DNA from: Catajapyx aquilonaris
Taxonomy: Eukaryota
Direction of reading: 5' to 3'
Assembly (NCBI GenBank): GCA_000934665.2
Contig: KZ538256.1
Span: 1-64,000 of the forward strand
Length of the DNA: 64,000 nt
Part shown: positions 13,817 to 63,925 of the stretch, piece after piece
Layout: every line of letters begins with the position of its first letter
How positions within the stretch are numbered: position 1 is the first letter of the stretch
The notes under the pieces: model-generated
The model's input: only the letters and a program-made list of their open reading frames with translations
Told to the model about the DNA's origin: nothing
Databases searched by the model: none
Program-made: the position numbers and the translations under genes

Positions 13817-13900
13817 ACTTACCGTGGATGCACCAAAATTTCTGAAACTCCACTCACCTGTAAAGAGAAAGAGAAATTGGTTATGCAAAATGTCACGAAG
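13817..13900 (-). other. Candidate recursive splice site RS-C with 35-nt cryptic RS-exon (13857-13823)
   Basis: Minus strand: gcaTAACcaatttctctttctctttaCAG|GTGAGT (junction 13858/13857) with ~41 nt free of AG upstream. A second consensus donor ACG|GTAAGT lies at 13823/13822. Confidence 0.72.
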
Positions 13901-16680
13901 CTGGCAATCAATGTTATACAAATAGATTTGCATAGTTATCATCAATTATGCGGTTTCGACCGCATAAGGTTATGGCAAATTGCCTTATTTAGGAGTTATG
14001 AAGCACATGAAATTAACAAGCAGTTCGCTAAATCATAACCTGTCCCAATTAGGCCCCCTGGCCAGTATAAGTTTAATTTGGCGTTGTGTTCATGTAATAT
14101 TCAAGCAATGCATAGTGGCGTAGAGAGGGGGGGCATGTGAAACGCAAACCATTATACTCTTGAAATACCGCTTTTTTCCAACCTACAGCCTACAGCTGCT
14201 ATTTGACTGCAAAACATTACCATTATGGTACCTACATTACCATCTTACATGTTGTATATTGCCTGATATGACATTAGGAAATAATCCAGATTTGACGATC
14301 CATTCGTCTTAATTCGACAGTATCATAAATGTTGTCCCGAAGGCCCATACCTATACCAGGCAAAACCCCGCCACGTCTAAAACCCAACCCAGCAAAAACC
14401 GCCAGCAGTGCCCCTCTCGCGGCCACACCCGGAACTTCTGGCCCATCTCCCGGATCAATGATGTAACAGATCTCCCAAGCAGTTCCGCAGCTTCCCACCA
14501 GAGTGCACCACCATCCCGGAAACTGCTTCCGCGATAATGTCACACCCCCGCTCAATCCATCAATCTCCCAACAAACCACGTGAACACCCCCTCCTACATA
14601 CCCCTGAAAATTTGCATACGCCCAAAACTTTCAAGGTCGCCCTCTTTGCACCCCCAATTCAATCAACACCTATCTTATTGAACTTTTTCCCCGCCATTCT
14701 ATAGCTATAGCTTTCTATCCCTGAACTTTACAGTAACGGCGCCTCGTTGCAAAAAAAAAAAAAAAAGAATTACATCCACCCTGCAGTGACCCTGACCTCC
14801 GACCTGCTCCCCTCGCAAATTTGGTACCCCCCACACGAGCAAGGGGCCAGTGCCAAATGTTGAATTGATTTCCGGTTGCCCTTCTGCAATATACGTGATG
14901 CCGAATATTTTTCTCAATACGTGTCTTTCCAAGGGTATACACGTCGCAGTTTTTTTTCAAGACTGCTACATAATATATTAGTTATATTCCTTTGAAAGTT
15001 GTGTGGCCAGAGTGTGATAACGAAAATAGCCCTAATTTATTTAATTTGCATATAGGACCTTATCGGGTGTAAGGATACTCCAGCGTTAAGTGCTACATGA
15101 TAATAATATTTTGATAACGGAAGGGCTCGATACTGGCCATAAATACAGCTTTGTCGGAGGAAAATATTTACGCTAATTAGACTACAGTGCCCGCAAATTG
15201 CGCCTGCCAGTAAGGCTAAAGGGCTGTAAGGGCGTATTATCGATGTAATGAGCATCAATTCACCAGTTTTGACAGGAGATCTCCTCCGCTTTTTTAGGAA
15301 GCATCGTTTTAAATAACAGTCAATTTTAGGAGTGAAAGCGCTCTATTTATTATTTATTAACTATAGTATTGACTGTTTGGTCGTTGCAAAGTAATTAACG
15401 GTAAATCCCTTATGTAAACTCGCAATATTGGCTTCAATATTTCATTATTTACAGGTTCAAGGTTAGCATTGTCAATTCATAATGAGTTATAGCAACAATT
15501 TGATCGTCCATTAATGACATTCCATGATTGAAGTTTGTTCAAGACTTACGATGCGGACAGATTACTCATGTCAGTCTCTGCCCTGGTTTTGCTTTATATC
15601 CTTCCTGCCAAGCCCGGCTTTACTGAAAGGATCAAACTCACCCTTATCTAACTGGCGGGCCTAATCTATCATCATCATCATCAAACTATAATCACCCTCC
15701 ACATATGTACCAACTGGACACCGTATATGCAAATTTCAGCAAAGATCCGGATCGATAATTTCCATTTTACAAAAAAAATTATATATATATTGTGGCGGGT
15801 TCAGACTCTTACACTCCATTTATATCTGGAACGACAATAGCCGTAAACCCCGGGTCATTTGCGATGAAATATGGATGAAAATAGCATGGCGGATTATTCA
15901 ACAGCAACAAGGAAGAAAACGAGCCCAGTTCAGCAGCTGAAGAGAGGTCGGCTTCTTAAGAAACTTGTCTGAATTCATCCCGCCCTCCATTCCTTTCTCT
16001 CTTGTCTCGTTTTCTTTCCCAGAAAACGAATTGATGCCATAATTTACCCAGGGTTTTTGTTTAATAATTACTGAGCGTTTAAGTGCGGAAAGTGAAGACA
16101 AACGCGTCTCATTTTGCAGGCGAAAATTGGACTGGAGTAGTGATATTAATGGTTTTTGGGCTAATCCGGAGACGGATTGGGTTCAAAATGACTGGAGAAC
16201 TACACGGAAGCAGACTTGTACGGATCGTATGTTCATTACAAAATAACATACACGCTCTCACTGTGACGTCCTAATATGTGCAATTTTAAATTACAATGCG
16301 GCACACTCCTCGTAATTGTATTTGTTTCTGGGGTTAGCATAGTAAAGACAATTGTGACTAAACCCTAGGCGTTTCGTAATATTATTTATTTGTCATGCAA
16401 TGGTTGTGCAAATGTATATCACTGTGCAATGTGCATCCTCCCATGAGAGCACATGCCACGGCTACTAAAATACATAAATACATAAATAATAAATGTATAT
16501 AATGGCTCTCGGCATACTGTAACTGCAGGATTAACTGCGTACGTAATGCATCTTTTATAAGTAAACGTGGTTCGCTCGCAGTGTCCTGCGTTTAATTCCG
16601 GAAGTGTCCCTTTACATTAAAAATTCGCAAGAGGATCACTATCCTAGTGTAATGCACTTTTTGGTCTTGAATAGCACTGC

Positions 16681-16822
16681 ACTATGTAGCTCAAATTCTT
16701 TTGGCCACTTTATCCTGGTATTGAAGCAACTATTCGCACAGGCCCCACGGTGAGGAAGTGTGTGTGTGAAGGGTTGCTTCAAAACCAGGATAAAGTGGTC
16801 AAAAGAATGTGAGCCCCATAGT
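16681..16822. mobile_element. Small palindromic element (MITE-like hairpin), ~142 bp
   Basis: ~60-bp imperfect inverted arms (ACTATGTAGCTCAAATTCTTTTGGCCACTTTATCCTGG... / ...CCAGGATAAAGTGGTCAAAAGAATGTGAGCCCCATAGT). TSD not clear. Confidence 0.7.
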
Positions 16823-18874
16823 ACGTTACATAGCGGTAAGATTATTAATTGCGAAACACAACAATGTCTAAAGTGCTATTTCATGAAACAGCCACATTGT
16901 TATTAATTGCTGTCGAGGTAACAATACATGATCCAAATGTCTCTGCACTGAGTTGCCAGAAAGTGACATCGACAACCTAAATAAAAACACCAAAAGACTT
17001 CCAACCACATTTGATTTACCCCGTCTCCAAACCAGATCGACACACCACGACCAAACTCTTGTCCACGTCACTATCATCCCTAGGGTCGGATTACTTCAGT
17101 CTGTCCCACGGAACCCACCCTGATCAAATCTGCAGGCAGAACATGACAGACTCTCTTTGGGTACAAAATAGGTACGACACATTAAGGGAACCCCCACACT
17201 TGTGAGTCTCCGTCTCGCCAGATGGTAGCCGCATCGGGTCAGGCTCGCTGGATCGATCCCGTCCTTGGGAAGATCCCCAGCAGCCGGTCGTCTGGTCCCG
17301 CCCTAAAAACCTGTTCCCTACTGTCCCATTTCCGAGCAGGGCGCAGGCAGTGATACTAGCAAAAAAAAGACACCCTTGCTAACTCTTGCCCGGTCTGGGT
17401 AATAAGACGTCAAGTGTTTGGCAACGTTCCTGCGCCTCACAACAAAACCGGCCAAAAACCCAGTCCAGGCCCCCAAAAAATAGGTTGCAAATATGGAGGA
17501 AAAAAAAGTGAGCAAATTCCTACAAAACTCGAGGCACCCATAGCGGACGTGTAAAAACCGACAGGATTGACGCTATTTCGTTCAATATTCCCGGAAACAA
17601 TGTCACTTAGGTCAGTTTCCGAGCGCCCTTTTGTTCACAGGCCACCTTTGTTCAGCCCGATAAATCAAACTTTTTTGATACGATATATATAGACCAGGCG
17701 AGGAGGCACACCTATATTCGATACTCGTATTTTACCATTTTGGAGCCATTTCCTACTCCGGAGCGCCCCAGAAATTTCGTGGGAGAGGTCCTTTTGCCAA
17801 CCATTAATTAGCGCATTGGAACGCGTACATTCCGGTGCCAAATTCTAAGGTTTATGTCTTCTGACATTTTCAATTTCCCTCGATTCTACCACTAGCAGTT
17901 GGCCCCACTACAATGGCTAAGACACGCTTAGCTCTAATGGCATAAGCCGCAACAATGTACTGCATACACTGACTAATTGTGTTGTCTGTAGATCGCTGGG
18001 CGATGGCTAGCTCGGGAGGACCGCAAATGCCACACTGCACCAACTAGCCCTTAATCGCATTCCTTTTAAACCCAGCCTGACGGAACTGCCGCTGAACGTC
18101 GCTGTGATGACAATGGTGGCGGCGCTGCTGTTGCAACCCACGAAGTTGCAGATGGATTATGATGGATCGAAGATCGGAAAATGCTATTACAAAAGTATCG
18201 CCTAGTTTGAGGGAAGTTTTAATATTAAAATGGCGCCTGTAATGGCGCAGTTTGGAGCCAGCAGGTTTTATGTCCAGAGGAGAATATGCGAGCAAAAATT
18301 ATGCTGAATATTAAATAACAAAAGAATTAAAAATAATGACCCCTACAGTACAAACTCACAAAGGAATTTAATGATTTCTAGCTAATATACAGCTGTTGCC
18401 CATACGCGTGGGGTTTTTTCCCCCCTTTGTTGGCAAACATGATAAATGCCTTCCATATTGAATCAATACGGTTGGCAGGAATAAAACGTCATCAGTCGAT
18501 GAAATATTATAAAAAATATGGCGGCGGTTTTCAAACAGAGTGAGGCCAGGCGGATACTGCAATGCCAACTGCAAAACAAAACCACAACATGCATGGGAAA
18601 CAACATGGCCAATATATTTCATCATCATGTCTCAGCTCATGCGGACTGTTTGCACTGCAGGTATGAAACAGGAAAAAAAACCCCACAATTTACCCACCAC
18701 GCATACTTTGTAAGGCTATCTGAAAAAAGTGCATGAAAAATAATAATCCACAAACTCCACAGGCCTCCACGCCTCCGCAAATCGAATATCACAACAAACA
18801 AGGTGGTTTCACAAAATGTGATTACCACTGTTATTGCAATTTACCTTCGACATTTACACCAATGGCTTTATTAA

Positions 18875-18875
<1 letters not shown>

Positions 18876-18936
<61 letters not shown>
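18876..18936. repeat. (ATT)n microsatellite, ~20 units
   Basis: Directly visible. Confidence 0.97.
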
Positions 18937-20681
18937 GCCCTATTATCTGATTGATACGTGTTAGAGTGTGTCTAGTTTATAAATTAAAAAGTTCACATTT
19001 GGGCAAAATGGAACAACACTGAAGGTATACATTAATGTGTCCTACATATATGCTAATTTTCGCGTTGCCAGTAAGTTAACAGTTATGTCATCAGTCCAAA
19101 CGCCAATGCATTCATATTATTCAGAAGTTACCCAACCACAAAACTATGGATAATATGCAGAAGAATTATGGCCCAAAACATGTCGAGAAATATACAGGCT
19201 ATATGTTTTTCAGAGGTGTCACCTATATGAAGCATTCTAGCCCATTCTGTCAATATAGCCATAAAAGCTACTGATTTTATTAGTAACCTATACATGCTAC
19301 TCCAAATGCTCTTTCATCATGTCATGGTTGGATGTTGGCAAAACTGCTAATGACAATTACGCAAAAATAATTGATACTGTTTAACTATGTTCGTTAAAAA
19401 GTCAACTAAATACTACAGTATGCACAACTAACCATGAACATTAATTCTCGATATACCGTCGGTTAGCAATTGGACTATGGGCGTACAACTCAAAACTATT
19501 TGCTGGCTTTAAAGCGAAATTTTATTGCGTTAAACAAGCGCTATAAAAAACTAGCTGAATAATACAGCATACAAACTGTTGTATCCACCACAATTGGAAT
19601 CGCGCGCAATTGAAAAAAAAATTAATACACAATGCAGTAGTTCAAAGCCGAATTTTTAAATTTTGGAAAAAATAACAAAGGCCTAGCACTACCCGATCCT
19701 CAGCTTTTCTGTAATCCGCCCTGCAGGCACACATGGCAATGCAATCAACCAACTCGGGATAAGTATTCCCGGGAAAACAAAGCTATTTTCACAAAAAAAA
19801 CCCACTCCACCCTGCCTTTCCCCCCACCTAGAGCACTGGTGAGTTTGCTCTATTGAGCCCGACATAAAAGGATCAATGGCCCACCAACCAGCCCCCAAAT
19901 TCCACACTGTGCAAGTTATTATTGATATGCATATGCACTGAATGTTCTGCAATCTAGGGGTCAGTGTATGAATAGCCTGTTTTCGCACCATTATTGCATA
20001 CCACAACATGACTACTCCACCTTTACTCACAAACTAGTCGTTATATTGACCCACACTGAAGTAACCCAGTGCCCCAGAGAAATTATTCCTCGTACAGCAA
20101 TGAGACAGAAAAATGTGGCATTTAAACGAGGCAGGTTTTTAAAACAGAGAGGCAAAATTAAAGGGGACATTTAATATCATTTGTTTGTCGAGGTGGACGA
20201 GGCTTACAGTTGACATTATACAGTGACGAGCAAATAAATTCGCATCATAATGTAGGTTGAATCATCCTCAGAGAACATATTCAAATAGTGTAAAATCGGT
20301 GTTAGTTAGCTAGGGCCACATGTATACCCGTGCGAAAATTCATTCCATACCGTGGAGCATTTTACATACTGTGGAAGCACTGGCCATACTGTAAAATTAT
20401 TACGCTGTAATCGTACTGGCGGCAGGCATAGTTTGCTAAATTTAATTAGCCCTTGCTGCTATCAATAACACATCTCTAAATGCACCCAGTCATATTTACC
20501 CTGCATATTTACGTATCAGAAATATGTCCATGAATGGACGCAAACCTGACATAATTAATCCGGCAACGGTTAGTCACTCCAATCATCCAAAACCATGAGC
20601 ATACTACCTGACCATATGCGTAGATTTATTTGAAAATAACACTCGGCGAACTATTTCATTGTTTTAAAATATGATCTTCAA

Positions 20682-20982
20682 CCGAAGCAGCAGTAGGTGA
20701 GGGGATATGGTATCCGGCTGCTACTCGGGAGGTCCGGGGATCAAATCCCGGGACCGGCAACTCTGACCGCGGTTTTCTGTGGTTTCCCACGGTCCCTCCA
20801 GGAAAATTCCGGAGTTGTTTCCGTAATTAACAGGCCACAGCCGCTTCCTTCCATCCCTATCCCTTCCCAAAAAGCGAAGCAAAAAAGTAAAAAGCAAAGA
20901 GTTCCTGACAAAAAATTGGGATGAACTCCCCCCCCTAAGAGAGCCAATGGCTCTATCACGGGGTAAATTATAAAAATAAAAT
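20682..20982 (+). mobile_element. tRNA-derived SINE (family 1), full length
   Basis: Degenerate tRNA-like head (B-box-like GGATCAAATCC), body GGTTTTCTGTGGTTTCCCACGGTCCCTCCAG...CCGCTTCCTTCC, and an A-rich tail. Perfect 15-bp TSD AAATATGATCTTCAA at 20667-20681 and 20983-20997. Confidence 0.88.
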
Positions 20983-22605
20983 AAATATGATCTTCAAGCG
21001 TGGTAAAAAAATAAGGGAAATGTATAATTTTTGTAATCCCTTTTGTGCTTGTTCCCAAATTCCTGAAAATGTCATAAGTACCTTACAGGCTGACAACAAT
21101 ATTAATAAAAATAAGCATGTGCATCAAAGTAGAATGACTGCTGTTCAATACAGCTACGTTAATTTGCTGTTTCACCGATTAAATAACAATTCAGTGTGAA
21201 TTTTATAGCAACTAATACGTCATGTGCAAATACTGTAACTGACATGTATAGAAACACCTTTCAATATCGATATAGCCTAATCATACGAACCGTCACTCAT
21301 AGCACACAAAAAGTGTCAAGTTTACAGAGAAATAGTCTCCATCTGTGACTGCCAATCAACTGAAATTTAATATGGCCGAATTGAGCACATATTTAAAACC
21401 ACGTGGTCCATTCACAGTAATCTTTAAATCTTCACGTATCCACCATTTTCAATCCTTAAAAATCCATTAGAAGTTAAAACTTTTAAAAACAAAAAAAAAA
21501 CCAAAAAAAAGGAAGCAGCTATACCAACGCTATTAAGCACGGTGGCATGTACTATCACGGTCAAAAAGATTGTCGGACTGTTATGGAATGGCAATTTTCG
21601 TCTGATGTGACGTTTTTCTCGCAGGAAACGACTCGCCCGTCAGTACCATTACAGCTTTTTCGAGAGAGAGAGAAAAAATTTGGGCAAACATGAAAAAAGT
21701 TTTTTCACAGATGCCCTTTTTGCTCCACAGCTATTCCACCACCGAATTTCAACAGGCGGCTTCCGCTTAGGAACACAACAGAACCTTGATTGCGCAGGTG
21801 AAAACCCAGGAAAGGTTCCATTAGTGCACATGGAAGCGGCAATCTAGCGCTAACTGATAAGATGGTCTTGTCTACAAACGAGACCGGAAAAGGCCAAACT
21901 TCATTAATCATCTTGTTTCGGATGTCTCAAGCCTTACGACGAAATGACAAAGGATTCCAATTACAATAAAAATGAACAAACACCAACGCTAAAGCCCAAG
22001 TGCAAAAGGAAGGGGTTTTAGCCGCATCAAGACGAGCGAATTGAATTGCGTATTTTTTTTTTGCACTCCCTCACCACCCCAAAGTTGCGACCTAGTTACA
22101 CAGAACAAGGATCAGAATATATCAGCCAAGCTATACCTTCGTTAAGAATTTACTTTTTGCATACAAACTGCACTGCGCCAAAAGGATTGCCGCGGTCAAC
22201 AATGGCAAAACTTGAATTGTGGGTGCATAATAAACAAACTCTACATTTTGCATCATCGCACTGTACCTTTGCAGGCAATACCTGAGCAGGGACCTAACTT
22301 TTCTGCAAAAAAACTTAACGCCCGCAACACATCACGCCGTTTCCAAAATTAGGCGAATAACTCAAACCGCGGCATATTTACGACGCTCAAAACGAAATAA
22401 ATCATCAAAATCCACTTCGGTCCTAGAACCTACCCGTTATTTATACCCGACCTACTAATAAATTACCCCCTCATAATCTTCAGTCAGCAAGAGTTCAGAC
22501 TCATACATTACACTTGCCACAAGTCTGAATAATCGCACCTGCAATGACACTGTTTTTTTTATTATTAAAAAAAGCCCCACAGGCATTGTACAGTACTGTC
22601 CGTCA

Positions 22606-22887
22606 ACCGGCGCCGGTGGACTAGCGGTTAGCGCGCTCGCCTCTGGTCCCAAGGTTGTGGGTTCGAACCCGGCCGAGGTCGGTGACTTTTCTCCGGGTGG
22701 TATAGAAAAGTGAAAGTGCGCCGTCCTTCGGAGGGGAAGTAAAGGCGTCGGTCCCGTGTGCTTGTGACATTAGACGAGTGCACGTTAAAGATCCCCAGAG
22801 TGGCAAAATTTCCAGGAGGAGGACCACCCCCTGGCGTCGGTGTTGGGCCTTAGAGGCAGAAATGGGCCGACGTTAAGCCCCACTGAT
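22606..22887 (+). mobile_element. tRNA-derived SINE (family 2) with Deu/Nin-like central domain
   Basis: A box TGGACTAGCGG and B box GGTTCGAACCC. Central GCCGTCCTTCGGAGGGGAAGTAAAGGCGTCGGTCCC...GTTAAAGATCCC (22720-22796) resembles the Deu/Nin SINE domain as recalled, not searched. Perfect 15-bp TSD CAGTACTGTCCGTCA at 22591-22605 and 22888-22902. Confidence 0.9.
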
Positions 22888-25800
22888 CAGTACTGTCCGT
22901 CATGACAACTCTTACACCGTACCTGACCACAAAGCGGTATTACAGCCACGAGGCTTAGGGTGTCACTGACCCTAATTATTACTGTCACCATGCAAAATGG
23001 TCAAGAGCTGAATTCAATTGAAAAGCCCCAGTTGCTCGAAGTGAACTGTCGATTTTCCTTCCACTGGGTTGCCATAGGAGACTAATTCCGGCTCTGGCAA
23101 ATGTTTAGTTAATGTGAACGAAGATTAGCGGGAAATCGGGTGGGAAGCGATTAAATTGTTATGTCCACTCTCGATATATAAAGCGGAAGGTTCGTGGGTG
23201 TGGGCCGAACAGGCTTTTGTTTGAAAAAAAATAAAGTTTTCAGCAAATTCTCCCAACACTCCAACAGTTCGCAAAGTATGCCAAAGATGGCGCTGTCAGC
23301 CGCTATGCTTTTAAACACCCGAGTTGTCCTGATAAAAAAATTCGTTTAGCAAATATTTCTCGCGCCATCCAAACCGCTATCTCTATACAAAAAAATTTCT
23401 ATCTCTATTTCCGACCCCCGACAAGAATCCGCGTCCGGTCCCTAGTGAAATGAATCGCTCTCTCCCTGCGGGTGCCATACGACCCACGACAGAATACACA
23501 AGAGCCTTAATTACAGTCAGACTCAAGCCTAGGACAGTTTAGGATTATTTATCGTCTGGTAGAACCCAGTAATGCAATCCGCAAAACTGCGGGGGAGAGA
23601 ATCCGAGGGGAATATGACCCACTTTTAAAATGTCATCAAGAGTTGGCCTCTCGGAATGGTGACGTCTCTTAAAGCGTGGTGTGACAGCAGAACCAGGGTG
23701 TGCTGAAAGGGGCCAAGACAGCGCGATCTCAGCCTTAGACATGCCAGGTCAGCAAATGATGACTCGTTCAGAAATATGAAATGATATTTTGATGCGGTTC
23801 GGACGCCCCCCAAAAAGCTGAATCGCATTGTCGTCAAAAAAATATTACACGCTCTCTGGCGACATCTTTTACAAATAGCAGGTGGTATCTACTACTCCCT
23901 CGCGGGCTATTTCTAACCCAGAGTTTTTTGACTGTCAAAAAAAGGTCGGAATGTGCTTAATACGTTACACTAACAGCGCATATGTTGTCCAACCGGGGGC
24001 TTTTCCAGCAGAACTCGAAACTTGGCCATTAGCTAATTGATAACAGCTGGAGGCTGTGTATCCTGAATCCGTAATTTCAAACGGCACACAGATTCGTCAT
24101 CCCGTGAATCCCGGATTAATACCCCGTTTTTTTTTTTTTTTTTTTTTAGGAGCCTGGAGATAAGCAAAGTACGGCGAGGACTTTGCTGGCACAACAATTT
24201 CTTCCCAGCAGATCGATGCTGAATTTTCCATTGCTGACAGAGAGGGGGGGCTGACCAAGAATCGGTTGTATTTCTCCCTGAGGCTAGCAACATTCAGCGG
24301 ATCCATTTAGTCGTAGAGTCCGAATATTATCGAGCGATTCCTGCCTCATCTCGCTTTTGAGTCCCATCGCGTGTTCGCTGCTAAAAGCGCTCGCCACCTC
24401 CCACACCCCCCCNCCCCCCCCCCCTTTTCATGGACCATTACCATAATTTTCCGAGCTGATTACATCCAGAGGAGCACTTAGGGTAATATCTCGCAGTGTT
24501 GTCACGGCAATTAAAGCCATCTATTACTTAATCTACACAAGGCCCATCTTTTGTGAGTTGAACCGTTCGCCGATTGTAATGTAAAATCCTGGGTCGAGAT
24601 AAGCATGGAGCCTTTCTTTGATTACAGTTACTGTAGACTTGCAACGGCTGAAAATCAGGGTTCAAAAAGAACTTGCGTAACAACCAACCCTGCATGTAGT
24701 TATCAGCATGGGGGTGTACCTCATACTGTGTGCTCAATTAAAAAGTCTATAATGAACACCAGGACCCTTCCATGCATGGTGGCCGAGGTTTTGTCGTCGG
24801 CAATAATTGGTTGTCATTACATGACCTACATGGGTGTACAAACATTGCCTTGTGTGCAAGTTACTAGTTTTCATTTCACTGGAAGCGTATGGCTCCACTC
24901 TAGAGTTTCTGTTATGCACTGTAAAACCGTTATGAATAGTTACACCTTGATATAATTTTACGACAATCCCATTCAATCGTACCGCCATTTCGACATTTTC
25001 AAAAAATTTCAGCACATTTGAGCTAAATCTCAGACATTTTGTTCCCATCACTCTTTCCAATCCTTCTTTTTAAAAAACATGTCAACCCCATGGATATCAA
25101 TCTGCTCCATGTCTGCGCACCCTAACAACCGGATTTTTTTAAAAAAATGACACCCGCGCAAAATCGGAAATTGAAGATCAGGTGCCAGTACGTAACGGGG
25201 AATTCCCCCGGATCTGATCACTTTTTTCCATTTAAAAAAACCCTCCGGAGTTGACAGATCCTATTGATTCGTTGTGGAGGTCTGAGGGGTTGAAAAAAGA
25301 GCTCGTAAGGTGCCAACCAAATTGCATATATCGCCCGGGAGGATCTTCTTTCCCTTTACCCCTTTTGGCTCAAGAAACTCCATCCATTTTGGCGCGCTAA
25401 AAGTGATGGCAGCGCCAGGCCTGAAAAGATGGATATGCAGAAGTAAATGGGGTTGGAGGAGGAGGAGGAGGGGATTCCTCTTTTCTTCCTATAAGGTTCC
25501 TTCTCTAAGTCCCACGACTATTCCCTATTCGCCTAGTGCAGCAGACTCTCTCGGGCTGCAACTTTCCAACCATCTCTCGGAAATTGAGAATGCGGATGCA
25601 AGCGGTGCTGGAGTTGGCAGAAACAAAAGAGGAGCCGAATTTTGCTGGGGACCGATCGACTTCGGAATTCATCCTCCAACTTTGCTCGTTGTGCTTCTCT
25701 CCACCCCCGCATCGTTGTTTTTTTTTTGTTGAAAATAAAATAAAAAAATGAGTTCCAAATAGCATTTTCGTGTCGGCTCATTGTTGAGGAAGCTCGGGGG

Positions 25801-26827
25801 TGGGGGCAAAAATATGGGTGGGGGGGCTTTGGGCGATAATGAAAAATATTACTGACTTCAATGGAAATACACAAGAGGAGCCTATCGATTAGTCGCACAT
25901 AAATTTTATAGAGGGGGGATGGGTGGCTCAGAAATTTTCATTACTGGTAATAGCCCTTGTGCAGGGGGGCAGGCGTAACGTAATTGCAGGGCACTTTATA
26001 GTTCCGGGAATAGTGTGGCGTTTTTAGTCTGATCCTTGCTACAGTGTTTGTTAGGAGTGAAATTTTGGCTACGTACAGGCTACAACAATAACATCGTTAT
26101 TCAGGAGCGTTCAGGAGATACTAACCATTTTTTAAACGAGGCACTGCATGTAAAAATTACAAAAGAGCGGCTGACCACATTTGGAAACTCTCTCACGCTC
26201 TCTAAATTATTTTGAGAGGTCTTGCACTCCTCCAATTGAAGTGGTTTCAGGTGACAAGCATTTCCACACACTCAAAGTTGATGACACATTTTAATCAAAC
26301 TGACAGGGGGGGGGGGGGGGNGGACTGCTTTAAAGGCGGTTTACAAGTATAGATGACAGAAATTTTCATTCAATTGCGTACAAATTAAGCACCATTCTAA
26401 CAACGAAAGAAAAACTTCCCACTATAAAAAGTTCATTAATTATTTTCAAATTTATTTCTAACTTCAATAATTAATAAACTTTCAATTGCAGCGTACAGCC
26501 CCCCTGGGTCAATTTTGTACCGAGTACAATATTTGTTCCCGGCAAGTTCCAAACTTTCCTCGTGCAAAAAAATAAATAAACTCCTCAAACTTCCAATCTC
26601 CTGCTCTCATGCAATACCAACTATCACTTCTCCCAAGTTACTTCATGATTCACTCTCGTTACATGCATGCGCTCCCCCCGTCAATCAATCCCAGCAGACG
26701 GGATGCCATGCCATCACACTACCCAACTATTGTTTGCTTGTCCATGTTGTCGATGACATGCTTTTACTATCCGGCACAACCTAATATAGCACTGCCTGAA
26801 ATTGCCACGCAAACTATCACCATCGCC

Positions 26828-26889
<62 letters not shown>

Positions 26890-26913
26890 CAACAACAATA
26901 GCAATAATAATAA
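26828..26913. repeat. (AAT)n microsatellite, ~19 pure units followed by a degenerate AAC/AAT tail
   Basis: Directly visible. Confidence 0.97.
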
Positions 26914-29348: not shown

Positions 29349-29493
29349 GGATAGGGAAGGAAGGAAGCGGCCCGCGTAATTATACTGGGGGGACCGTGGA
29401 AAACCCCAGAAAACCATGCCGGCCCCGGGAATCGAACCCTGGACCACCCGATTACCAGTCGGACTCCTTAACCACCACACCAACCTGCTTCGG
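29349..29493 (-). mobile_element. tRNA-derived SINE related to family 1 (3' end uncertain, may extend to ~29075)
   Basis: Minus strand starts CCGAAGCAG like the 20682 copy. A box TGGTGTGGTGG and B box GGTTCGATTCC. Shares GGTTTTCTG..GGTTT.CCACGGTCCC.CCAG and CCGCTTCCTTCC.TCCCTATCC with that copy. No TSD found. Confidence 0.8.
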
Positions 29494-32394: not shown

Positions 32395-32490
32395 TCTTAC
32401 CTGCACTCTAGGGGCAATGAAGTGGTTGGAACCCAAGTGTACTCACCTGCAACAAAAAGAAGGGCATAGTTACAACACGAAAGGCACAAC
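32395..32490 (-). other. Candidate recursive splice site RS-B with 46-nt cryptic RS-exon (32446-32401)
   Basis: Minus strand: tgTAACtatgcccttctttttgttgCAG|GTGAGT (junction 32447/32446) with ~42 nt free of AG upstream. A second consensus donor CAG|GTAAGA lies at 32401/32400. Confidence 0.72.
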
Positions 32491-32543
32491 CTGACATCGC
32501 TATAGTTGTCATCAAAATTATAGCATACTATCACGCAAACAAG

Positions 32544-50851: not shown

Positions 50852-50885
50852 CTAGACAGAGCGAGCGCCGGCTCCTCATCACCCG

Positions 50886-50899
50886 GTTGCCATGACGAC
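50886..50899. promoter_or_regulatory. X-box-like (RFX) motif just upstream of the exon
   Basis: GTTGCC-AT-GACGAC fits GYTRYY-N1-3-RRHRAC. It lies ~35 bp upstream (minus-strand sense) of TCTAGTT, which resembles an arthropod initiator. Motif match only. Confidence 0.3.
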
Positions 50900-53800: not shown

Positions 53801-56800
53801 ATTAGCAGATCCGCCAATTCAAAACGCCGCCATTGTAACGACCTACCGCCGATATACGCCTAGCACGTAACCCCAATAAATTACCTAAGTTGTGCGGGCG
53901 CATAAGGATTACAAATTTAATTACTAATTACGTGTAGGGGTGGGATAAAAAAAACACAGGGTGGCATAAAAATAGTCGTGACCGGGTTTAATTCGAATGT
54001 TAAGACACAGGGAACGTCCCATGCACTTTTTTAAAACGACACCATCTGCATAGTTTATACTGTGTGAACCGATGTGACAAATTTACAAATTTATCTTTTG
54101 GCCCGGGCACAATGCATGCATCAGTCCGGGGGATGAACTCGTTTCTCCCCCTACCATCACTTAACAGGCTAATAATCACTGTATCGAAATCAGAGGGGGG
54201 GGATGCGCCTGCATTGTTCCTCCAATCGCACCATTTTGCTAAATTGCCCCGGATAATGAATGAGTCAGGGAACGGCACACATGCAAACATATACCCACAC
54301 GCGCTGGCGGAACAAATAATAGAGACGCGCCACGTGTGTGTGCCGTCGGGAATAGTCGCGTCCCATGTGATCAGCATGTGTGTCCAAAAGCTGACCGTGT
54401 CACGCAACGTCACGCCGAATTTAAAATTCGGCTATAATTGAATTTTAATATTTCAATTAGGATAAGCGTGACGTATATGTCACGGTCCATCACAGTGTCA
54501 AGTGACGTCATTTGTGGTTACCCCCGGATTCTACCCCGTGCGGTAAACTCTGCAGCGGCATCATGTGGCCATTATTCCGGTTGGATCTCTTTACCCGGGG
54601 AGGGATGAGGGTGTCGCGGGGGAGACAAGCGGTCCGAAAACACATGCATAAATGCAAATAACTGCTACCAAATCGGATTTGGGCACGAATCGATCGGGAA
54701 CGTGTGTCCATCACGAGTAACACGTCCCACATCATGTTCGTAGCGGGAGGTTTCGAGTGAGACATGAATCACTCCGCCATAATTGGGCCGACATTGCAAT
54801 TTTCAACACCCGCTCTTCCAAGCACTGACTATTGTTTCATACATATCTATTACTTTAGGGACTTTCGCCTCCCGATCACCCCGACCTGACGATCGATATA
54901 ACCCTTCACGTATTGAAGATATACAGGGTGTTCCAAACGTATACTATATACACCGACTCATAAAGGGCATGAAAATCAGCCATTTTGAATCCAGCTTATG
55001 GCCAATATTTTTAGAGCAACTTTTTTTAAAAAATGCTTGTCACGTAACATAACAAGTAACTTTGCGAACAAACTACTAAATTCCAATAGACTGATCAACT
55101 TTCTCAACCAGTGGCGTGGTCGTGTTTCCCAAGTTGAATCCGGTCTAATTGGAGGGAGCGGAATTAGAGAAAAGAAAGAAAAAATTCCCTGCAAAGCAGC
55201 TAAGGGCCTCGGGCTTAATCTTCCCAATCTCTAAAAAAAAAACAGATCCCAATGAAATGTGCTCCTATAAAGCCGTTATATTGGCAACAAGAGTAATCTT
55301 GGCATACTATTGGCTGCTTAAAACTCTCGTCACTCATCACACAGTGATATGAGTCGTGGGGGGGGGGNGGGGGGGAGAGCCAATTTCACCTGCCTTAAGA
55401 TATAGACTTTGGCGTGTGTGCATTATTAAAAGTCTCCAAGTTTCAGATCAGATTAGCATGCCATGAAAAGCCTTGACATAAAGCCAGGTATCATCTACTG
55501 GAGCTCCATACCAATATTATATGCACATAGTTCAGTAATCTTCAGGCATCTTGCACAATATTGCGCAATGTGCTCCAGATTCAAAATATGATGATGCACT
55601 GCCACATCCAGAACAAGAATTTTTAATTGGATTTTAGTAACAAACTTCTCAAGTTCGGGCCCAATTTTTTTTTGCTCGGACACAAATACCTTATTCAAGT
55701 TTCCTTAGAAGTAAACCTACTTTTCGATACACTTTCACAAAAAAAAGAAAAAAAAGAAAGTTGTTAAGCACCTTCCGGCCATAATCTGTGCATGACAGAA
55801 CTTCGTAAAAAATATATTCCATTCGGCTGCCAGAAAATGTTCTCTCCGGGGACAAAAAAAAGGGGCAGTTCCGTATAATTTCCTCCACAAATACAAAAGG
55901 ACCAATCCGTCTTTCTGCCTCCATTCCTTCTAGACAAACAAGAACATGTGCGGCAACAAAAAAAAGCGATTTGCATTTCTAAGATGTTTGCCCAACCATC
56001 TAAAGGTTGGAGAAACCTTGGCCATCCACCGTTTCATATGTTGGCACCACTGCTCCAGAATTGCCCGAATATCCTGCAGATTTGATCCAAGGGAAAACTC
56101 GTCTCCCTAGCTTATTACTCGATAGGGATTAAGTTCCTGTGTAGCTGCTATACGTAACGTGCCTTTCATTTTTTAACGCCTTTTCTTACATGCAATCTGC
56201 CTTCGCTAAGTGTGGAATTATGCAACAAGCTCCTTGGGAACATCACACATGTCCATGAGACTGCGGAGAAGGACGCGGCCCTAACCTTGAACCAATAAAC
56301 TACACGCGCGGGACTCGGCCCACATGAATACTTTTCGAAGTCATGATTTATGCAAGCCCTACATTGCATACAGCGTAAAACTATTTTGCAACTTGCTAAT
56401 TAGGTCAAGCTCGTATGTATTTTAAAGTGGCACCACTCTGGGACCCCCTACACTGTACATAATTCTACAACCTGAAATTCAGCAAACATGTGGTTTCCTC
56501 CCCCCCCCCTCTCACAGGTTCAGATGTAATAAGTCGTCAGCAGTAAATTTGCTGACTGGAAACACCTACTAATCAATTTGCACCGTAGGGCTTCCAGTTG
56601 ATGGATAGACAGCTCCCTATTAACATGTAGACATTTTTGATTAATCTCGTGCCGACCACCGAGCCGAGTAAATAATCAAACAGATCATACCAATACACAA
56701 GGCGATAGCAAAACTCCAATTAAATTCATGCCGCCCAACACGGGGGGCGAGAATGAATGATGTACCATATTGGGGGGGTACATCCAGCCTATAATGTATG

Positions 56801-59800
56801 TCCCATGTCGCAATCAGGTCAAACCTTAAAAATTCGTCGCACGAACTTTACAATATTCGCTTTCCGTACTATTCGGTGGGGTTGTTGCAACGTTGCGGTA
56901 TGAATCTTTTCTGACATGAGCATAAGCCGAGTATTATGGGCTCGCCCAAATCCTGGGTGGCGATGCCTCCCAGTAGATCCAGAAGACTTGAGAAATCCCC
57001 AACGGAGGAGACAAATGGTCCATCAACTTGGCAACATCATCCTGCGCCTTCCGGGAAAAGCTACGTTGCCGCATTCTGCCATAACCTTCGGCTCCAAAAC
57101 CCGCGTCTGCATACCCTCAAGTAATCAAATTTACCTACTCTATATACTGAAATAAAAAATGTGAAACCTAACAACTATGCCCTCTTTTTTTCCCTTCCAT
57201 AAACACAAAAGGGGCTACCTTAATTGATAGAGGCGTAGATTAAACAAAGAGCCCTAGTTTCGTTCCCCACTGAGGAATGAACCATGTGAATAATACATAG
57301 TATGTGAAGTTGCCTAACTACTATAATTTAATCAACACCGCGGTGTAGGTGAGCAACTTTAAACCTTTGTGCTCATTCACTTGGGCATTAATGAACTCAG
57401 CACGTCGAGTTCAAAATTGGCAGCTCGATGGATCAATCCGGATCCCACCCAATTGGCACAAATTTAGGATGAATTTTCGAAACGCACTATTTACCCTACT
57501 AAACTTCATGAAACTTGTAACAACATCGCTTTTTTTATTGATATTGCAAATTTGCCAACTTTGGCTACTACCTAAAAAAAAAAAAACATGTTACAGTGAT
57601 TGTTTCGGACCTGGAATGAAAGCCTGACCTTGCTCTATTGTCACCAATCGACTCTTCAACTCCTTTTGTGAACCTCCTTCCATTCCTGGGTGGGCTTATT
57701 CTAATTAATTCGGCAGCCTGGATGCGCCGCAATTGGCTGCCTGACTGAATGGCATAAGCGGTCTGGGCAATCATAAAAGCTCGGAGCGATATTGCTGACC
57801 ACTTAGCCGCAGCCAAGTTCAGGATTTTACGGCCGGTTTATGCCACGCCAAAAACCTTGGGAATTGAGGGGCTCGTCATCAGATTGAGGTTGAGCCAATA
57901 AGGAGCCGAAATAAGAATCAGGTCTGATAAAGACATTGCTCATGAACATGACTTTAATGGTGAGCAAAATTTACATCTACTGATAAAAAGTTATGCTCTG
58001 AAGACATATTAATCACAGTATGCGACAAAACGACCGATTGTATCACATTTTGGTGCGACGGCTCCTTTACCAAACTGAACCAGGAATACTGCCAAAAATG
58101 TCGCTCTTGAATAAACAAAGCGCGAATTAGCCAAAAATTGCTTAAATCGAGCCCAGATTTGATTGGATCCGGTTCGTCAACCATGAGCAATCCAATTGCT
58201 TTCAATACCAAATCGACAAATCTTGTTTGGAGTGTCAGACCTTCCCGCAATAAATCCCCACGAGTCTCTTCACCTACAATAGCCTATAATTTGATTAGCT
58301 CCAAGCAGCTACCGACATGGATCAAGTTGTCACCTAGACCCCAAATCCTAATTTCGAAAATTCCTTTTTCCCTACCTTCCAATATCCCCCCAGCACCCTC
58401 ACCACCCGGGACATATTAGATCGCAAGCACCCCCCACCTTATTAATTTGGGAAACCCACCCACCAAACCCCCTGAGGCTATTCGTAGGGGGGTCTCTATA
58501 GATTCTCCTACTGGATTTTCCAACCCTGGCAACTTTCCAGGGTCCTTTCCTCCCCAAGATTTCTCTGCTGCCAGCAAGATTGAGGATTGGCGAAACACGG
58601 CCCATTTCAACCAGAGCCGGATTTCCATTACTATTTAGCTGCAAATGGGTTTTACTTCGCTAGGACCTTTTAAAAAAACCGGCTTTCTACAGACTTGTCT
58701 TGATGTTGTCCCGCACTGTATCGCCACTGGATATAAAAAAAAGGAAGTTCGAAGATCCATCAAGGTTGCGACATCCACGTTGGTTAGTACCTTGTGTTAT
58801 GCATGCGTCTGGCGTTTTGGAGCACCCTTTCGATGCTCTCAACCTAGCCTTTCAAGTAGGCATATAAGGCGGCTTAAATGGCCCGCTCTTGTATGCGCTG
58901 GATAAACAACGGAACGTAGTATGAGCACAATGCCTTGGAGGGAAAAAGATGACGGCTTGACCGTTAGAAACCTCCTACGTGCAATACGTGCCCTGAAGCT
59001 GCTCAAACTTCTCTTTTCTGAGCACTCCAGTCTGGAACCACCCGCCCACCCCTAGGCCGTGACTATCTCGCCGAATGACGTTTAGACAAACTGCCCTTGT
59101 TACGACTTAACTGTGCGTAAGAGCTGCCAAAATTTTCGAAGAAGCTGTTCGGTATACGAGCTATACTCGAAAAGTCACGTGTACTTCCAACATGTCAAAT
59201 TCAGATACCGTACTGTATGCAAATTTACAACACTCAAACTATATGTAATATTTGACGCAATATTTGATTATAAATTCACGCTCCAACTGTAACACTTGGA
59301 GAAATCTTCGCTTTGTCGCTTCCAAGTCTAAGCACAGTTTATTTCCTTTGAGTCCCCAAACTTCTGTTCGCACACTCCGGTACAGTATACCCATCAGTAC
59401 ACACCTAGCTCCGTTCCGCACACCGACTCGACCAAATTAAATTCGGGCAAATTCTCTTATTTTCCTCCCAGTGTCGACTTTGTTTTGGAAGCCTTTCGAG
59501 GGCAGTCCCCGTCGGTTTTGCGAAGGCGCACCGGCACATTGAAGATCGATGGCCCGAGACCCCTACGTGGTCCGCCTCCTAAAACCCCTCCGGAGACCCC
59601 GGGGCCGGACATCCATTTCCTCCAGCCACACCCAGGCTGCCACTCGCACTGCATTCATTCCTCACACCCACTGCTCATGGCCAAGCGTCAACTCGACCCC
59701 GCTGTCTTATTCACGGAGCACGACTTCATTTCTTCCGGAGTTACACTTGTACTACTGCATCTATCTTGGTAGCTGTCAACGGCCAGGCTAACAAGACTCG

Positions 59801-59918
59801 ACTCATTGCTCGCATTTTCAGGCCCTCTTATGGAACTGGCAGCCTAATTAGGTCGAACTTATGGGGCATGAAGTTGAAACTACTCGAGGTCATCTTAGGA
59901 TCCTAAAAATGACCCCTT

Positions 59919-60077
59919 CTGCCGTCCCAAGGAGAAACTGTAAAACTAGTAAGGGTGAAACTCGCATGCATGTCCTGCACTAATCCCCCATGACTCAGAC
60001 GGTATTAGTGCAGGGCATGCAAGCGACCTTCACCCTTACTAGTTTTGCAGTTTGGGTGTTTCTTCTTGGGACGGTAG
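59919..60077. mobile_element. Palindromic MITE-like element, ~159 bp
   Basis: Inverted arms CTGCCGTCCCAAGGAGAAAC-TGTAAAACTAGTAAGGGTGAA...TGCACTAAT / ATTAGTGCA...TTCACCCTTACTAGTTTTGCAG...TTCTTGGGACGGTAG with a ~19-nt loop. No clear TSD. Confidence 0.7.
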
Positions 60078-63000
60078 TGCAGCCTCCATGTCCACCATCT
60101 GGCCATCACAATTCAATTCAACTGCATCCAACGTCGACTCGAATCACTCCCTACAAGAAAGAGGTTGGTTTTGAAACTGCCATCTCAGACACCGGCCACA
60201 AGCAGTTAAGAGCTGGATGAGGTTCCCGAAAGAGCCCGGTCCTACTACCCACCCAGAGCATTAGCTTCCCACAATGCCCACCTCATTTTACACCCGAATA
60301 ATGTGTGTTTTACGACTGGACGGGGGCCCTTCCGACCCGGTTTTTTCTAGCAGTATACCTTCTCCGCAGTCCACGAATTCCTGGCAAGCCCCCGTTTTTT
60401 TTTTCTTCGCGCACATGATAATATTTTTTTTTGCCACAAGCCACAACTTCATTAAATATGCCAGACGGAGTCTGCAACATGCAGGTCGATTTCAATATCT
60501 CTTGCAGCTAGCTACCCGTCCACGAGAGGGTGATATTATTTCCTGGTACGACACTGCGCGCAATAAATCCGGCATTGTTTTTCAATGAAGGCTATGAATT
60601 TGCCGTCATATGCAGTAGCCTACGGTATTTCAAGATGATTTTTTTTTTGGTCACAATTCGAGACCATGCGTCCATTAATGAGGCGGCGAGTTATGATTTT
60701 ATGACCGTTTATGGTCTATTTGCCCGCATAAATGGCAACCCCTGTTATTTACGACACGTGAAATAATAGTCGACATAAAAGTTTATATCGTTAAAATAGC
60801 CGCGAATAACCGCCTAAGAAAATTCCAAACTTTTACCTGATATTTTTCCCCCTTCAGAACCCTGGGAAAAAAACAACTTTTGGCATGAATTTCAAAGTGT
60901 GCTCCAAGATGCACGGCAGTTTCAAACTTTTATTTGAGCTGAAAACACCGGAGAGACTCCAAAAAAATTTCTATGGTCCAGGGGTAGAAAATCTTCGTCC
61001 GGGTCATACATTCGCACTTAACACCCCTCTGATCCAGTTCCAGCAGCGGTAAATCATAGACCCCCCCAACCCTTGCAATTAACGGCCCTAGAACTGGGGG
61101 GTACTCTTTCCAGTCGGTGCAACCGGTGCGGACCAGTTACCGATTCCGAATGGAACATTAACTCCACTGTGAACTGTTATATCAATCAGGGGCCCAACCA
61201 AGAGTACCGGGTAGCTCGCAATTAACTCCATGTTCGGACACGTATAAGAGAAAACTAACATCCCCCCCTTTTCCTTTTCATCGTCGGTAATTCCGGTCCT
61301 TCGCACGTTTGACCAACCATTTACCAATGCTCTGAAGTTGCTTGCTCGTATGGAATGTCACGGAGCGCCCCAATAATGGCACATCCTGTACCGATAATAA
61401 TTCGGTGCGTACCAGACGTCATACCCGTTGAATTCTGGACGCCAAAGCGACTGATGCAGTTAATTTCCTCTTGCATACGCTCCATCGTCCTTTTGGGACA
61501 CAGCAGGAAGAATGTGTCATCTTACGTATCGCAAGCAGTCAACAGATAGCATCCCTCGCCTTCTTTTTCATTGCCCGTATTTTTTCCTCGAGCTCAAGAC
61601 AGCGTGCAACCCTTTTTTCTTCCCCGGCACTGGTCCAACTACCATTCACGCTAGAACTGCTCGAAACTTACGCCCCGCAGTCACGTGAACTCGGTACCCC
61701 TTAGCTTCGGCTGTAACATGATTTACTGGGTGAGGCGATCCGCAAAAGGCCGCTCCCTTTTCTGGCTACGGGAGAAATCACCAAGAGATACTGTACGCCA
61801 CCATTTTTTTTTCTCGTCTTTCAGAGTCTTCCAACTCAGATATCAAAGTTGCACCGGACGAAAAGTGAACCGACGTACGGAATGTAAATGCCGCACAAGA
61901 AGGGCTCCGGCAGCTGCAGTGTATGGTAATATCACACGAGTGGGCAGATGTTAGAGAATAATTAATGCGATTTCGCAGTAGACGTAACGGCCATGTTCCT
62001 AGAAAAGAGGGGGTTAGTTGGACTATTATCCGGGTCTGGGAAAACGACCCAATGGAACGTTCTGAGGAAATGGACGGTCCAGTGTCACTTTTCGCCACCG
62101 GGGCGCTATCAGGCTTCCAGTGGAGGTTATTGCAAAAGGCGGTTATTCCGGCAGACTGGCCAAAGGGGCAAAAAAAAATCCGACAAGTGTTTTCACTTTA
62201 AATCCAGAAAGAGCTGCAATATTAGACTTTTTGCTCATTTGTAATGTACACGGTGGAATTACCCGGTGCCACGCGTCTGATTTGCATAACAAAACAGTCA
62301 GTCGACAGTTTTCTGATATTATGAAACACACGGTATACATTTGTTAAAAAACCGTAACTCCCAACACCATCCTGTCGACGTGGTCTACTTTGGAGGTGTC
62401 CACTAAATTCGCTAATGGTTTGAACCTATTCTTGTCCAGCCTGAAACCCTGTCAGACACCGCATTGTAGCCGGCCATGCACAATAGCCCTCCATTTTTCG
62501 GCGTGTCGCTGGTCCTGAAAATAGGGAAGCAGCATCGGACCTGATCCCGGATGCACAATTATTCATTCCGGAGCACTATTGAAGAGTCACCCCCCTAAAA
62601 AAAACTTTGAATTGTTTGGCCATCATCAGTCGGGGCTTTTCCACATCCCCCCAAGCCTCCTATCGAAAACGGTCCTTCGGCTCCAAAAAAATTCGGGAGC
62701 TCCATCGTCCGGGTCATTCAGAACGGACGTTCTTCACTCAACAGGTAAGCTCTGGGGAATTCGCGTTTGCAAAAGAGGAGGATCTCTTGAGGTCATCGGG
62801 CGAGGTCGGTCCGCTGCCAGTTTCGCCGTAATGAAAATTTATCGCCCTAAAACCCACTCGAGAAAACAAAAACCGAATTTTACTGCAGCAGCCGTCGTGT
62901 CATTTCCTCGGAGAAATAAAATACCGGGGGTTCCTGTGCCGTACCGGAGGGAGGGTGTACAGTAGTGATTTTGATTGCAAAATACCGGTGTGCATGCGGA

Positions 63001-63893
63001 ATGATCCGAGACATAATTAGTTTGCTTATCCGGTTTCGTTGATGTCAGGATCGCTTTGCCTGTCTCATGTTCCGAATGATCCGGGGCAAGCTATTCGGAT
63101 CCTTACTGTTTGACGACTGCCCGAATTATATTGCGAAGGATGGGTTGAAGCCCAATGGCTTCTGACAGTTTGCTGAAGTTCGGCACCAATTTTCGGAGCA
63201 GTGGAAAGTCGCTTTTAATCATCAAAATCTGTTGAGATAACCAGAACCTCAAATGGAATATTACGATAGAAATATCGCGCTCCATTTTTTAAAAAACCGC
63301 GAACTTCATGCGTTTTAAATTAGGTTTGAATCATCCTGTGTACACGGACCAAAAAAAGGTGACTTCCAAAAAAATTGATTCCTGGAGCAATATCCAACTT
63401 ATTACGTTACACATTTCAGAAGCCAATTGCAAGCCAGGTTCCCCGAGGCTAGGTACAAGTACTGGACTATTTTCTGACAAGTGCTGGGCTTACCTCTCGG
63501 GCGCTTAATGAAAGCTGCAGAGAATGGCAGCTTCCGATATTTATCTGCCCTACTTCTCCGGGCGATACCATACTCTCTACGGTACTGCCCATTCCACTGC
63601 CTTCTCTGCTCTCCGCACATTACACAACGTAGGTATTTTTTTTTTCTTTCTTTTCTGGCGAGACTAATGCAACATTCAGCAAGGGATGCAGACAGGGCCA
63701 ACCCAGCTCCATGAAATTTTCATTGTTTCCTTCTGAATGAGAAAACTCAGTTGCTGCACCGAAGCGATTACAATGGGAATGGTGTGTATTTTTCTTACAC
63801 GCGGTGCGTCCAAATGGCTCCGGAGTTCAGAGTAAACTTTTAACGTCCCGGTACCGGATTATTACGGCACATTTCAGCCGGTTCCAAATTAGA

Positions 63894-63925
63894 ACATACC
63901 TGGAAAAAAGACAAAAAAAAGTCAG
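63894..63925 (-). other. Candidate recursive splice site (ratchet point) RS-A
   Basis: The minus strand has branch-point motif CTGAC (63925-63921), a T-rich pyrimidine tract ending ...gtcttttttcCAG, then immediately the donor hexamer GTATGT. Junction at 63900/63899. Confidence 0.6.

Follow-up and report, generated by a model that had tools for sequence, protein, structure and literature searches.

Recursive splicing removes a long intron in steps, at ratchet points where a complete 3' splice site is fused directly to a 5' splice site. In Drosophila, where beside those of Ubx, kuz and luna about 200 to several hundred more are known, they carry the motif (Y)nNCAG/GTRAGT (the slash marks the splice junction throughout) on the sense strand of very long introns, the fly range being 11-133 kb. 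Vertebrate recursive-splicing exons (RS-exons) were reportedly described by Sibley et al. in 2015. The RNA-level evidence that we found in the literature comes from Drosophila and vertebrates, and other invertebrates are represented only by a statistical enrichment published in 2009. Here we describe three candidate ratchet points in genomic DNA of Catajapyx aquilonaris, a non-fly arthropod. They lie within positions 1 to 64,000 of the forward strand of contig KZ538256.1 (assembly GCA_000934665.2), a 64-kb stretch referred to below as the window, and on the same strand as an exon of the conserved neuronal scaffold gene CASK.

Fly ratchet points have further features by which candidates in other genomes can be judged. 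Nearly all of them (196 of 197, as opposed to 43.76% of all introns) have TT at positions -5/-6, their branch points fall mostly between -36 and -21, and the segments that they delimit average 17,953 +/- 9,039 bp (Duff et al., bioRxiv preprint). According to the relevant passages of Joseph et al. 2021 (PMC8605326), a fly ratchet point is also the start of a short cryptic exon of about 50 nt, which has its own donor, shows little conservation and for the most part lies out of frame, and is skipped because the regenerated donor wins the competition. The data tables and text sections of Pai 2018 (PMC6110457) that bear on this point give a high-confidence recursive site in 63% of fly introns longer than 40 kb, and an enrichment of strong 5' splice sites after recursive sites. 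CASK itself is among the fly genes concerned: FBgn0013759, named as CASK in an excerpt of PMC10559581, has, in the S1 table of PMC6110457, a 24,955-bp intron with one high-confidence recursive site (junction reads 32, 73, 65 and 3) and another of low confidence.

For other animals the closest precedent is statistical. In the section of their survey that deals with introns longer than 50 kb, Shepard, McCreary and Fedorov (2009, PMC2773006) give sense-to-antisense ratios of ratchet-point sites of 8.2 in sea urchin, 21.7 in fly, far above 10 (>>10) in mosquito, 4.0 in bee and 8.0 in beetle; for long introns of vertebrates the same section reports no sense-strand enrichment, with a ratio of about 1.

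Three fused acceptor-donor sites on the minus strand

On the minus strand of the window, three acceptor sequences end directly on a donor hexamer. The first, RS-A, reads ...CTTTTTTCCAG/GTATGT with the G of its GT at 63899, and has a long T-rich tract and CCAG before the donor. RS-B reads ...TTTTTGTTGCAG/GTGAGT, with its intron G at 32446 and CTTCTTTTTGTTGCAG upstream, and RS-C reads ...CTCTTTACAG/GTGAGT, with its intron G at 13857 and TTTCTCTTTCTCTTTACAG upstream. A second donor lies a short distance downstream of each, so that every site can be divided into an acceptor half and a donor that opens a candidate cryptic RS-exon, as follows.

63900..63925, minus strand: RS-A acceptor half, pyrimidine tract and CAG, AG at 63901-63900; acceptor score 10.4
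63799..63899, minus strand: RS-A donor (GTATGT, 63899-63894) and candidate cryptic RS-exon of 101 nt, followed by donor CGT/GTAAGA (G at 63798)
32447..32475, minus strand: RS-B acceptor half, pyrimidine tract and GCAG, AG at 32448-32447; acceptor score 8.0
32401..32446, minus strand: RS-B donor (GTGAGT, 32446-32441) and candidate cryptic RS-exon of 46 nt, followed by donor CAG/GTAAGA (G at 32400)
13858..13886, minus strand: RS-C acceptor half, pyrimidine tract and ACAG, AG at 13859-13858; acceptor score 9.6
13823..13857, minus strand: RS-C donor (GTGAGT, 13857-13852) and candidate cryptic RS-exon of 35 nt, followed by donor ACG/GTAAGT (G at 13822)

An earlier reading made from the letters of the window by themselves (the sequence-only reading) had described three full 3' splice sites fused to donors at 63899, 32446 and 13857, and the minus-strand sequence is as it described. 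Its further statement that all three have a branch motif stands in full for RS-A, where CTGAC with the A at -23 is the sole strict YTNAY match in the usual place among the three sites; RS-B and RS-C have the branch-like motif TAAC with the A at -24, which is not a strict match. All three have TT at -5/-6.

That the sites might be copies of one repeat was ruled out, there being no direct repeat of 40 nt or longer in the window. When the three 200-nt regions around the sites are aligned, they agree at the splice core only.

Rarity and strand bias

The window contains 231 AGGT sites on its minus strand and 169 on its plus strand, and each was given a combined acceptor and donor log-odds score that takes in the pyrimidine tract from -20 to -5, the base at -3 and donor positions +3 to +6. 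The scores of RS-A, RS-B and RS-C, taken together and in descending order, are 18.1, 17.4 and 16.5. The runner-up on the minus strand, with 9.4, is the very donor that lies 46 nt downstream of RS-B, and the best AGGT of the plus strand reaches 9.0, which agrees with the impression of the sequence-only reading that the plus strand holds no site of equal quality. The comparison with shuffled sequence that it had proposed also came out in its favour: beside three minus-strand sites and no plus-strand site scoring 16 or more, none was found on either strand of 300 dinucleotide-preserving shuffles (0/300; highest score 15.94), and the mean number of sites scoring at least 14 was 0.023 per shuffle.

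Other ways of counting single out the same sites. Among acceptor-like AGs scoring at least 7, three of 12 on the minus strand are followed immediately by a donor that also scores at least 7, as against 0 of 11 on the plus strand. Donors of that strength number 43 per 64,000 minus-strand positions, at which density about 0.008 acceptor-donor coincidences would be expected. A plain consensus rule, YAG/GTRWGT preceded by at least 10 pyrimidines in 12 positions, returns exactly these three sites, all of the minus strand, and nothing on the plus strand.

Weaker AG/GT sites also occur on the minus strand, at 57571 (T13AG/GTAGTA, score 8.0), 41787 (TTTTCAG/GTGAGG, 6.6) and 8821 (AAG/GTGAGG, 8.2). These could be minor or stochastic recursive sites, and are no stronger than the top plus-strand sites. 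Very strong acceptor-like sites (10.8-12.2) are found on the minus strand at 10368, 35246, 30168 and 7464, most of them on long T runs; they have neither an attached donor nor a CASK exon behind them.

The exon ending at 50252

Between RS-A and RS-B, and on the same strand, lies an exon that ends in ...GGACAG (last base 50252) and is followed by GTAAGA.

50252..50398, minus strand: conserved 3' part of the CASK short-isoform N-terminal coding exon, final codon CAG at 50254-50252
50246..50251, minus strand: exon donor GTAAGA, first intron base 50251

The reading frame of the exon is open up to 50851 and contains a single in-frame ATG, at 50338-50336. A word-based protein search with the last 49 residues returned no match among longer proteins. 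With phmmer, a search of 1.84 billion representatives gave nine matches, eight of which cover the last ~45 residues at 50-72% identity; the named records among them come from Blattella (cockroach) and Frankliniella (thrips). The ninth, P0002, aligned to query residues 29-59 and was dropped as a low-complexity match. In the predictions that read through the exon end as an open reading frame (ORF), namely P0003-P0005, P0007-P0010 and P0016, a V (GTN) stands directly after the same Q, as a GT donor at the same place would give.

The name of the gene came from a motif profile search, which matched 'peripheral plasma membrane protein CASK isoform X12' of Harpegnathos (ant), a protein of 761 amino acids with PDZ, SH3 and GuK domains only. 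In this protein the sequence shared by all CASK isoforms starts directly after the motif. We compared the window with 12 CASK isoforms chosen from 146 proteins by name, length and Pfam pattern: all seven short-type isoforms, which are hymenopteran, match 50353-50252, and none of the five long-type isoforms, which have kinase and L27 domains, has any match in the window. The isoform-specific N-terminal peptide ends in a CPVHSPYRF...Q motif, with its boundary at the same residue as that of the common pre-PDZ part. Judged by protein comparison, then, the exon, which the sequence-only reading had picked out as the credible one on the strand of the sites, is the isoform-specific N-terminal coding exon of a short, PDZ-SH3-GUK-only form of CASK, and its last ~45 codons are conserved in insects.

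Between 50300 and 51600 there is no acceptor-like AG scoring 2 or more. Since no acceptor-like site lies upstream and the match is to the N-terminus of the short isoform, the exon is probably an alternative first exon. In Drosophila, the short CASK-alpha starts from an internal promoter and is devoid of the 5' exons of CASK-beta, according to excerpts of PMC10559581 and PMC3608901. The exon region has a G+C content of 69% with C>G on its sense strand, opposite to the surrounding intron. According to a summary of a 2026 human-cell preprint, there is more recursive splicing in first introns where the upstream donor has CG-rich flanks; for this G+C-rich and probably first exon the likeness to that pattern is a mere resemblance. 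The N-terminal start shared by hymenopteran short isoforms was not found in the window. Farther upstream, the exon consists in part (50400-50468 and 50612-50671) of imperfect 6-nt repeats encoding His-Pro and Cys/Gly-Pro runs.

Intron context and segment lengths

Around this exon, the context is intronic throughout the window.

1..64000, minus strand: intronic context, G>C and T>A on the minus strand, no other CASK exon detectable

Of the 64 one-kb bins of the window, 56 show G>C and 48 show T>A on the minus strand, and the skew has the same sign in all four segments that flank the exon and the sites, upstream as well as downstream of the exon. Base skew of this sort marks the transcribed strand. 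It fits minus-strand transcription through the whole window, and for the long isoform the skew is what points to transcription. Comparison of the Harpegnathos CASK protein with the window revealed no CASK exon beyond the one ending at 50252, and the intron that follows that exon must therefore be longer than 50 kb. A Pfam scan of 230 ORFs of at least 75 amino acids (110 on the minus strand and 120 on the plus strand, those with 5 or more X being left out) found no family above its cut-off; a Rot1 match of 16.2 bits, below its cut-off of 23.2, was disregarded. The window has no Rfam match at the gathering threshold. Exact-word scans of metagenome contigs with the cores of RS-B and RS-C gave 0 loci.

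The sites divide the intron after the exon into segments of 17,805 nt (50251 to 32447), 18,589 nt (32446 to 13858) and at least 13,857 nt (13857 to 1). Were 50,252 nt cut at two random points, the probability that no piece would be shorter than 13,857 nt is 0.03, which is a rough guide, given that the real end of the intron lies beyond the window. The sequence-only reading had seen an evenly spaced chain of sites; its arithmetic of 17.8 and 18.6 kb holds, and the evenness rests on two complete segments. It had also counted the exon as a link in one chain, with a segment of 13.0 kb from RS-A to the exon. This is probably no splicing unit, as the exon has no acceptor. If the exon is a first exon, RS-A would be of use only to transcripts whose start lies upstream of the window, and for these the step from RS-A to RS-B spans 31.5 kb.

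Proposed stepwise removal of the CASK intron

The motifs, their rarity, their strand bias and the identity of the gene are shown by the sequence analysis. Drosophila-type ratchet points on the strand of the exon appear to be the best explanation of these observations; from them we infer that the spliceosome uses the sites, and in which order. For RS-B and RS-C at least, use as recursive splice sites of the CASK pre-mRNA is probable, with room left for doubt.

In the proposed pathway, the CAG at the exon end would be joined to the acceptor of RS-B, by which 17.8 kb would be removed and the donor CAG/GTGAGT rebuilt. The rebuilt donor would then be joined to RS-C, with the loss of 18.6 kb and a second rebuilding of CAG/GTGAGT, and in a third step either to another site or to the next real exon, beyond the start of the window. 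That joining the exon to RS-B or RS-C would restore this near-ideal donor had already been remarked in the sequence-only reading, and the last letters of the exon bear it out. RS-B and RS-C would probably be recognised first by exon definition, the second donor marking the far end of a cryptic exon of 46 or 35 nt; the regenerated donor would then outcompete the second one, and nothing of the site would be left in the mRNA. RS-A, 13 kb upstream of the exon, would play the same role for long-isoform (CASK-beta-like) transcripts in which the internal first exon is left out, and these transcripts would then proceed to RS-B and RS-C.

A more speculative extension, which we hold only tentatively, is that stepwise removal of the CASK intron is an old trait shared with Drosophila. 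Ratchet points would have been added as the intron lengthened (25 kb in the fly, over 64 kb of sequence free of exons here), keeping the pieces near 18 kb; RS-B and RS-C would be common to two promoters and RS-A confined to the long isoform, and selection would act on segment length rather than on particular sites.

Candidate cryptic exons and donor competition

Downstream of each of the three sites there is a donor scoring at least 7.9, at a distance of 101 nt from RS-A, 46 nt from RS-B and 35 nt from RS-C. Donors scoring at least 7 have a density of 0.067 per 100 nt on the minus strand, and the chance of finding all three downstream donors is of the order of 3e-4. Not one of the three lengths can be divided by 3, and the 46-nt piece at RS-B, read in the phase of the upstream exon, contains an in-frame TAG. 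With the exon-side CAG included, the donor regenerated at RS-B and RS-C agrees with CAG/GTRAGT at nine of nine positions; the cryptic-exon donors agree at eight of nine (RS-B) and seven of nine (RS-C). The TT at -5/-6, the downstream donors and the out-of-frame pieces are fly-type features of which the sequence-only reading had made no use, and lend its core independent support. So do the identification of the exon with CASK, in an intron of more than 50 kb, and the recursive site recorded in the fly gene.

Comparison with described recursive splicing

In every sequence-level respect in which a comparison could be made, the three sites appear to agree with Drosophila-type ratchet points. They have the motif itself, on the sense strand of a very long intron with several sites, the TT at -5/-6, a branch-like A near -24, an out-of-frame cryptic RS-exon with its own donor, and segments of about 18 kb. 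Both donors seen here, GTGAGT and GTATGT, are present among the fly sites in the S1 table of PMC6110457. Unlike the fly sites, those described here belong to a non-drosophilid host and are known from sequence alone. What tells used sites from look-alikes in flies is RNA evidence (junction reads from exon to ratchet point, lariats of internal segments, saw-tooth coverage of the intron) together with a peak of conservation at the site among related species. A second difference is the place of RS-A, upstream of what is probably an internal alternative first exon, so that the chain would be common to two promoters; we did not find a chain of this kind described in the portions of the fly recursive-splicing literature available to us.

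In the fly CASK gene the segments are about 11.7, 2.0 and 11.2 kb in an intron of 25 kb, compared with about 18 kb in an intron of more than 50 kb here, and the fly site, ...CCGTCAG/GTAAGC, has a weaker pyrimidine tract than any of the three. Our argument resembles the part of PMC2773006 that deals with the sense-strand excess of acceptor-donor sites, the count in this window being 3 versus 0. That work, as far as the sections concerned go, gives genome-wide statistics with no individual loci, whereas here a single locus is described together with its cryptic-exon architecture and the identity of its gene. There is also a likeness to vertebrate RS-exons, which, in the account of Blazquez et al. 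2018 (PMC6224609), are defined first and spliced to the preceding exon, by which a recursive 5' splice site is recreated. As in those, inclusion of the cryptic exons would break the reading frame; unlike those, all three sites have the long pyrimidine tract and the TT at -5/-6 of the fly type.

Points against ratchet points and alternative explanations

Several points weigh against the interpretation of the sites as ratchet points. The frequencies in the weight matrices were assumed values and not trained on introns of Catajapyx aquilonaris, and shuffled sequence loses its natural pyrimidine tracts, which leaves the plus strand as the sole control made of real sequence. Neither the exon that would supply RS-A from upstream nor the one at the end of the intron lies within the window. 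The likeness to the fly CASK site is one at gene level (CASK, a long intron, an AG/GT recursive site) and need not extend to orthology of the two introns. There is no ATG upstream of 50338 in the conserved frame of the exon; either translation starts at 50338 or the draft sequence has a frame error upstream. Finally, on the six intron positions two of the cryptic-exon donors are stronger than the donors of the sites themselves: GTAAGT at RS-C scores 9.5 against 8.5, and GTAAGA at RS-A scores 7.9 against 7.0. Inclusion of these cryptic exons in some mRNAs is therefore possible.

The last point leads to the alternative that survives best, even so an unlikely one, in which each site is the acceptor of a real short exon (101, 46 and 35 nt) that is sometimes included, as a regulated, frame-breaking poison exon or as an expressed RS-exon of the vertebrate type, with the AG/GT donor acting as a switch. 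A strong donor does follow each site, outscoring the site's own at RS-A and RS-C, and expressed RS-exons are known from the microexons of Ubx in flies (relevant passages of PMC8605326) and from mammals (PMC6224609). Against it, inclusion would break the CASK frame, no length being a multiple of 3 and RS-B having its in-frame stop, and an exon is not expected by chance to begin with GTGAGT or GTATGT three times out of three. The same splice sites would be involved as in ratchet-point use, and the two explanations overlap to a large extent.

Less likely still is that the motifs are real and yet unused or rarely used, as decoys or pseudo splice sites, as remnants of one-time exons, or as stochastic splice sites that have no selected function. 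Work on lungfish, in the portion available, argues that long introns can be managed without fixed recursive sites, and the first fly survey called only 6% of introns above its minimum size recursive (Duff et al. preprint). Such an origin is difficult to reconcile with a tally of three sense-strand sites as opposed to none in the antisense direction and none in 300 shuffles, with the extra fly-specific features that all three share, or with a spacing near the fly mean; and sites so strong are unlikely to be ignored by the spliceosome within a transcribed intron. That the sites are instead ordinary exon borders of another, overlapping minus-strand transcript (a nested gene or a long non-coding RNA) is most improbable: the window holds no identifier of the transcript of RS-A, and the case for long-isoform transcription is made by base skew only, but no ORF of at least 75 amino acids on either strand has a Pfam match above the cut-off, there is no Rfam match, and an ordinary border would leave three consensus donors set directly on acceptors unexplained.

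Ratchet points as the preferred explanation are less new an idea than the sequence-only reading implied, sense-strand enrichment in sea urchin, mosquito, bee and beetle having been published in 2009 (in the part of PMC2773006 that concerns them). In the literature that we searched we found no RNA-level demonstration of recursive splicing for arthropods outside Drosophila. What the locus offers is three very clean, individually testable candidate sites. If they are used as proposed, the fly mechanism, including its exon-definition step, would operate well outside Diptera, and one set of ratchet points would serve two promoters. There is also a consequence for annotation: such sites leave no trace in mRNA and are overlooked by standard pipelines, and the 46-nt and 35-nt pieces could be mis-called as exons.

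Repeats and assembly features in the window

A short hairpin-forming element occupies 32545-32655, some 80-200 nt upstream of RS-B on the minus strand. In the bin 32350-33016 the summed word depth of DNA contigs is 255-388, against about 20-30 in the adjacent bins, and the element is probably a high-copy repeat similar to miniature inverted-repeat transposable elements (MITEs). Contig breaks at 32526 and 32586 place RS-B outside it.

Close inverted repeats are found at 8107-8462 (135-nt arms, 93% complementarity), 16681-16822 (60-nt arms, 87%) and 59935-60053 (53-nt arms, 89%); all three look like small foldback or MITE-type elements in the intron. The segment from RS-B to RS-C contains (TTA)23 at 18868-18936 and (AAT)29 at 26828-26914, which are in opposite orientation 7.9 kb apart and could, as RNA, pair over about 60-85 nt. 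Assembly Ns occur at 16 places (for example 5407-5415, 9194-9356 and 51277-51278), as one gap of 163 Ns and many single or double Ns. Those examined (51277-51278, and those read as X beside Pro or Gly runs) lie in or beside homopolymer runs of G or C, which suggests uncertain run lengths in the draft assembly.

The sequencing runs listed for this DNA are four DNA runs of one study, which may be its source, and a small second run of unknown kind with the same species label and a share of 0.04; none is listed as RNA. Over 32350-52349, contigs from the small run and from two of the DNA runs showed no joint relevant to splicing. The three joints listed there fall within DNA contigs, with short sides of 20-21 nt at repeats. 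The small run supplied long pieces only at 45257-45563 and 45746-45981, which are intronic and of low depth, and nothing on the exon; it also has one contig of which fragments of 18-19 nt match at 43496-43513 and at 49475-49493. One of the two long pieces has two base differences and a 1-nt deletion that are also present in one DNA contig of the other study.

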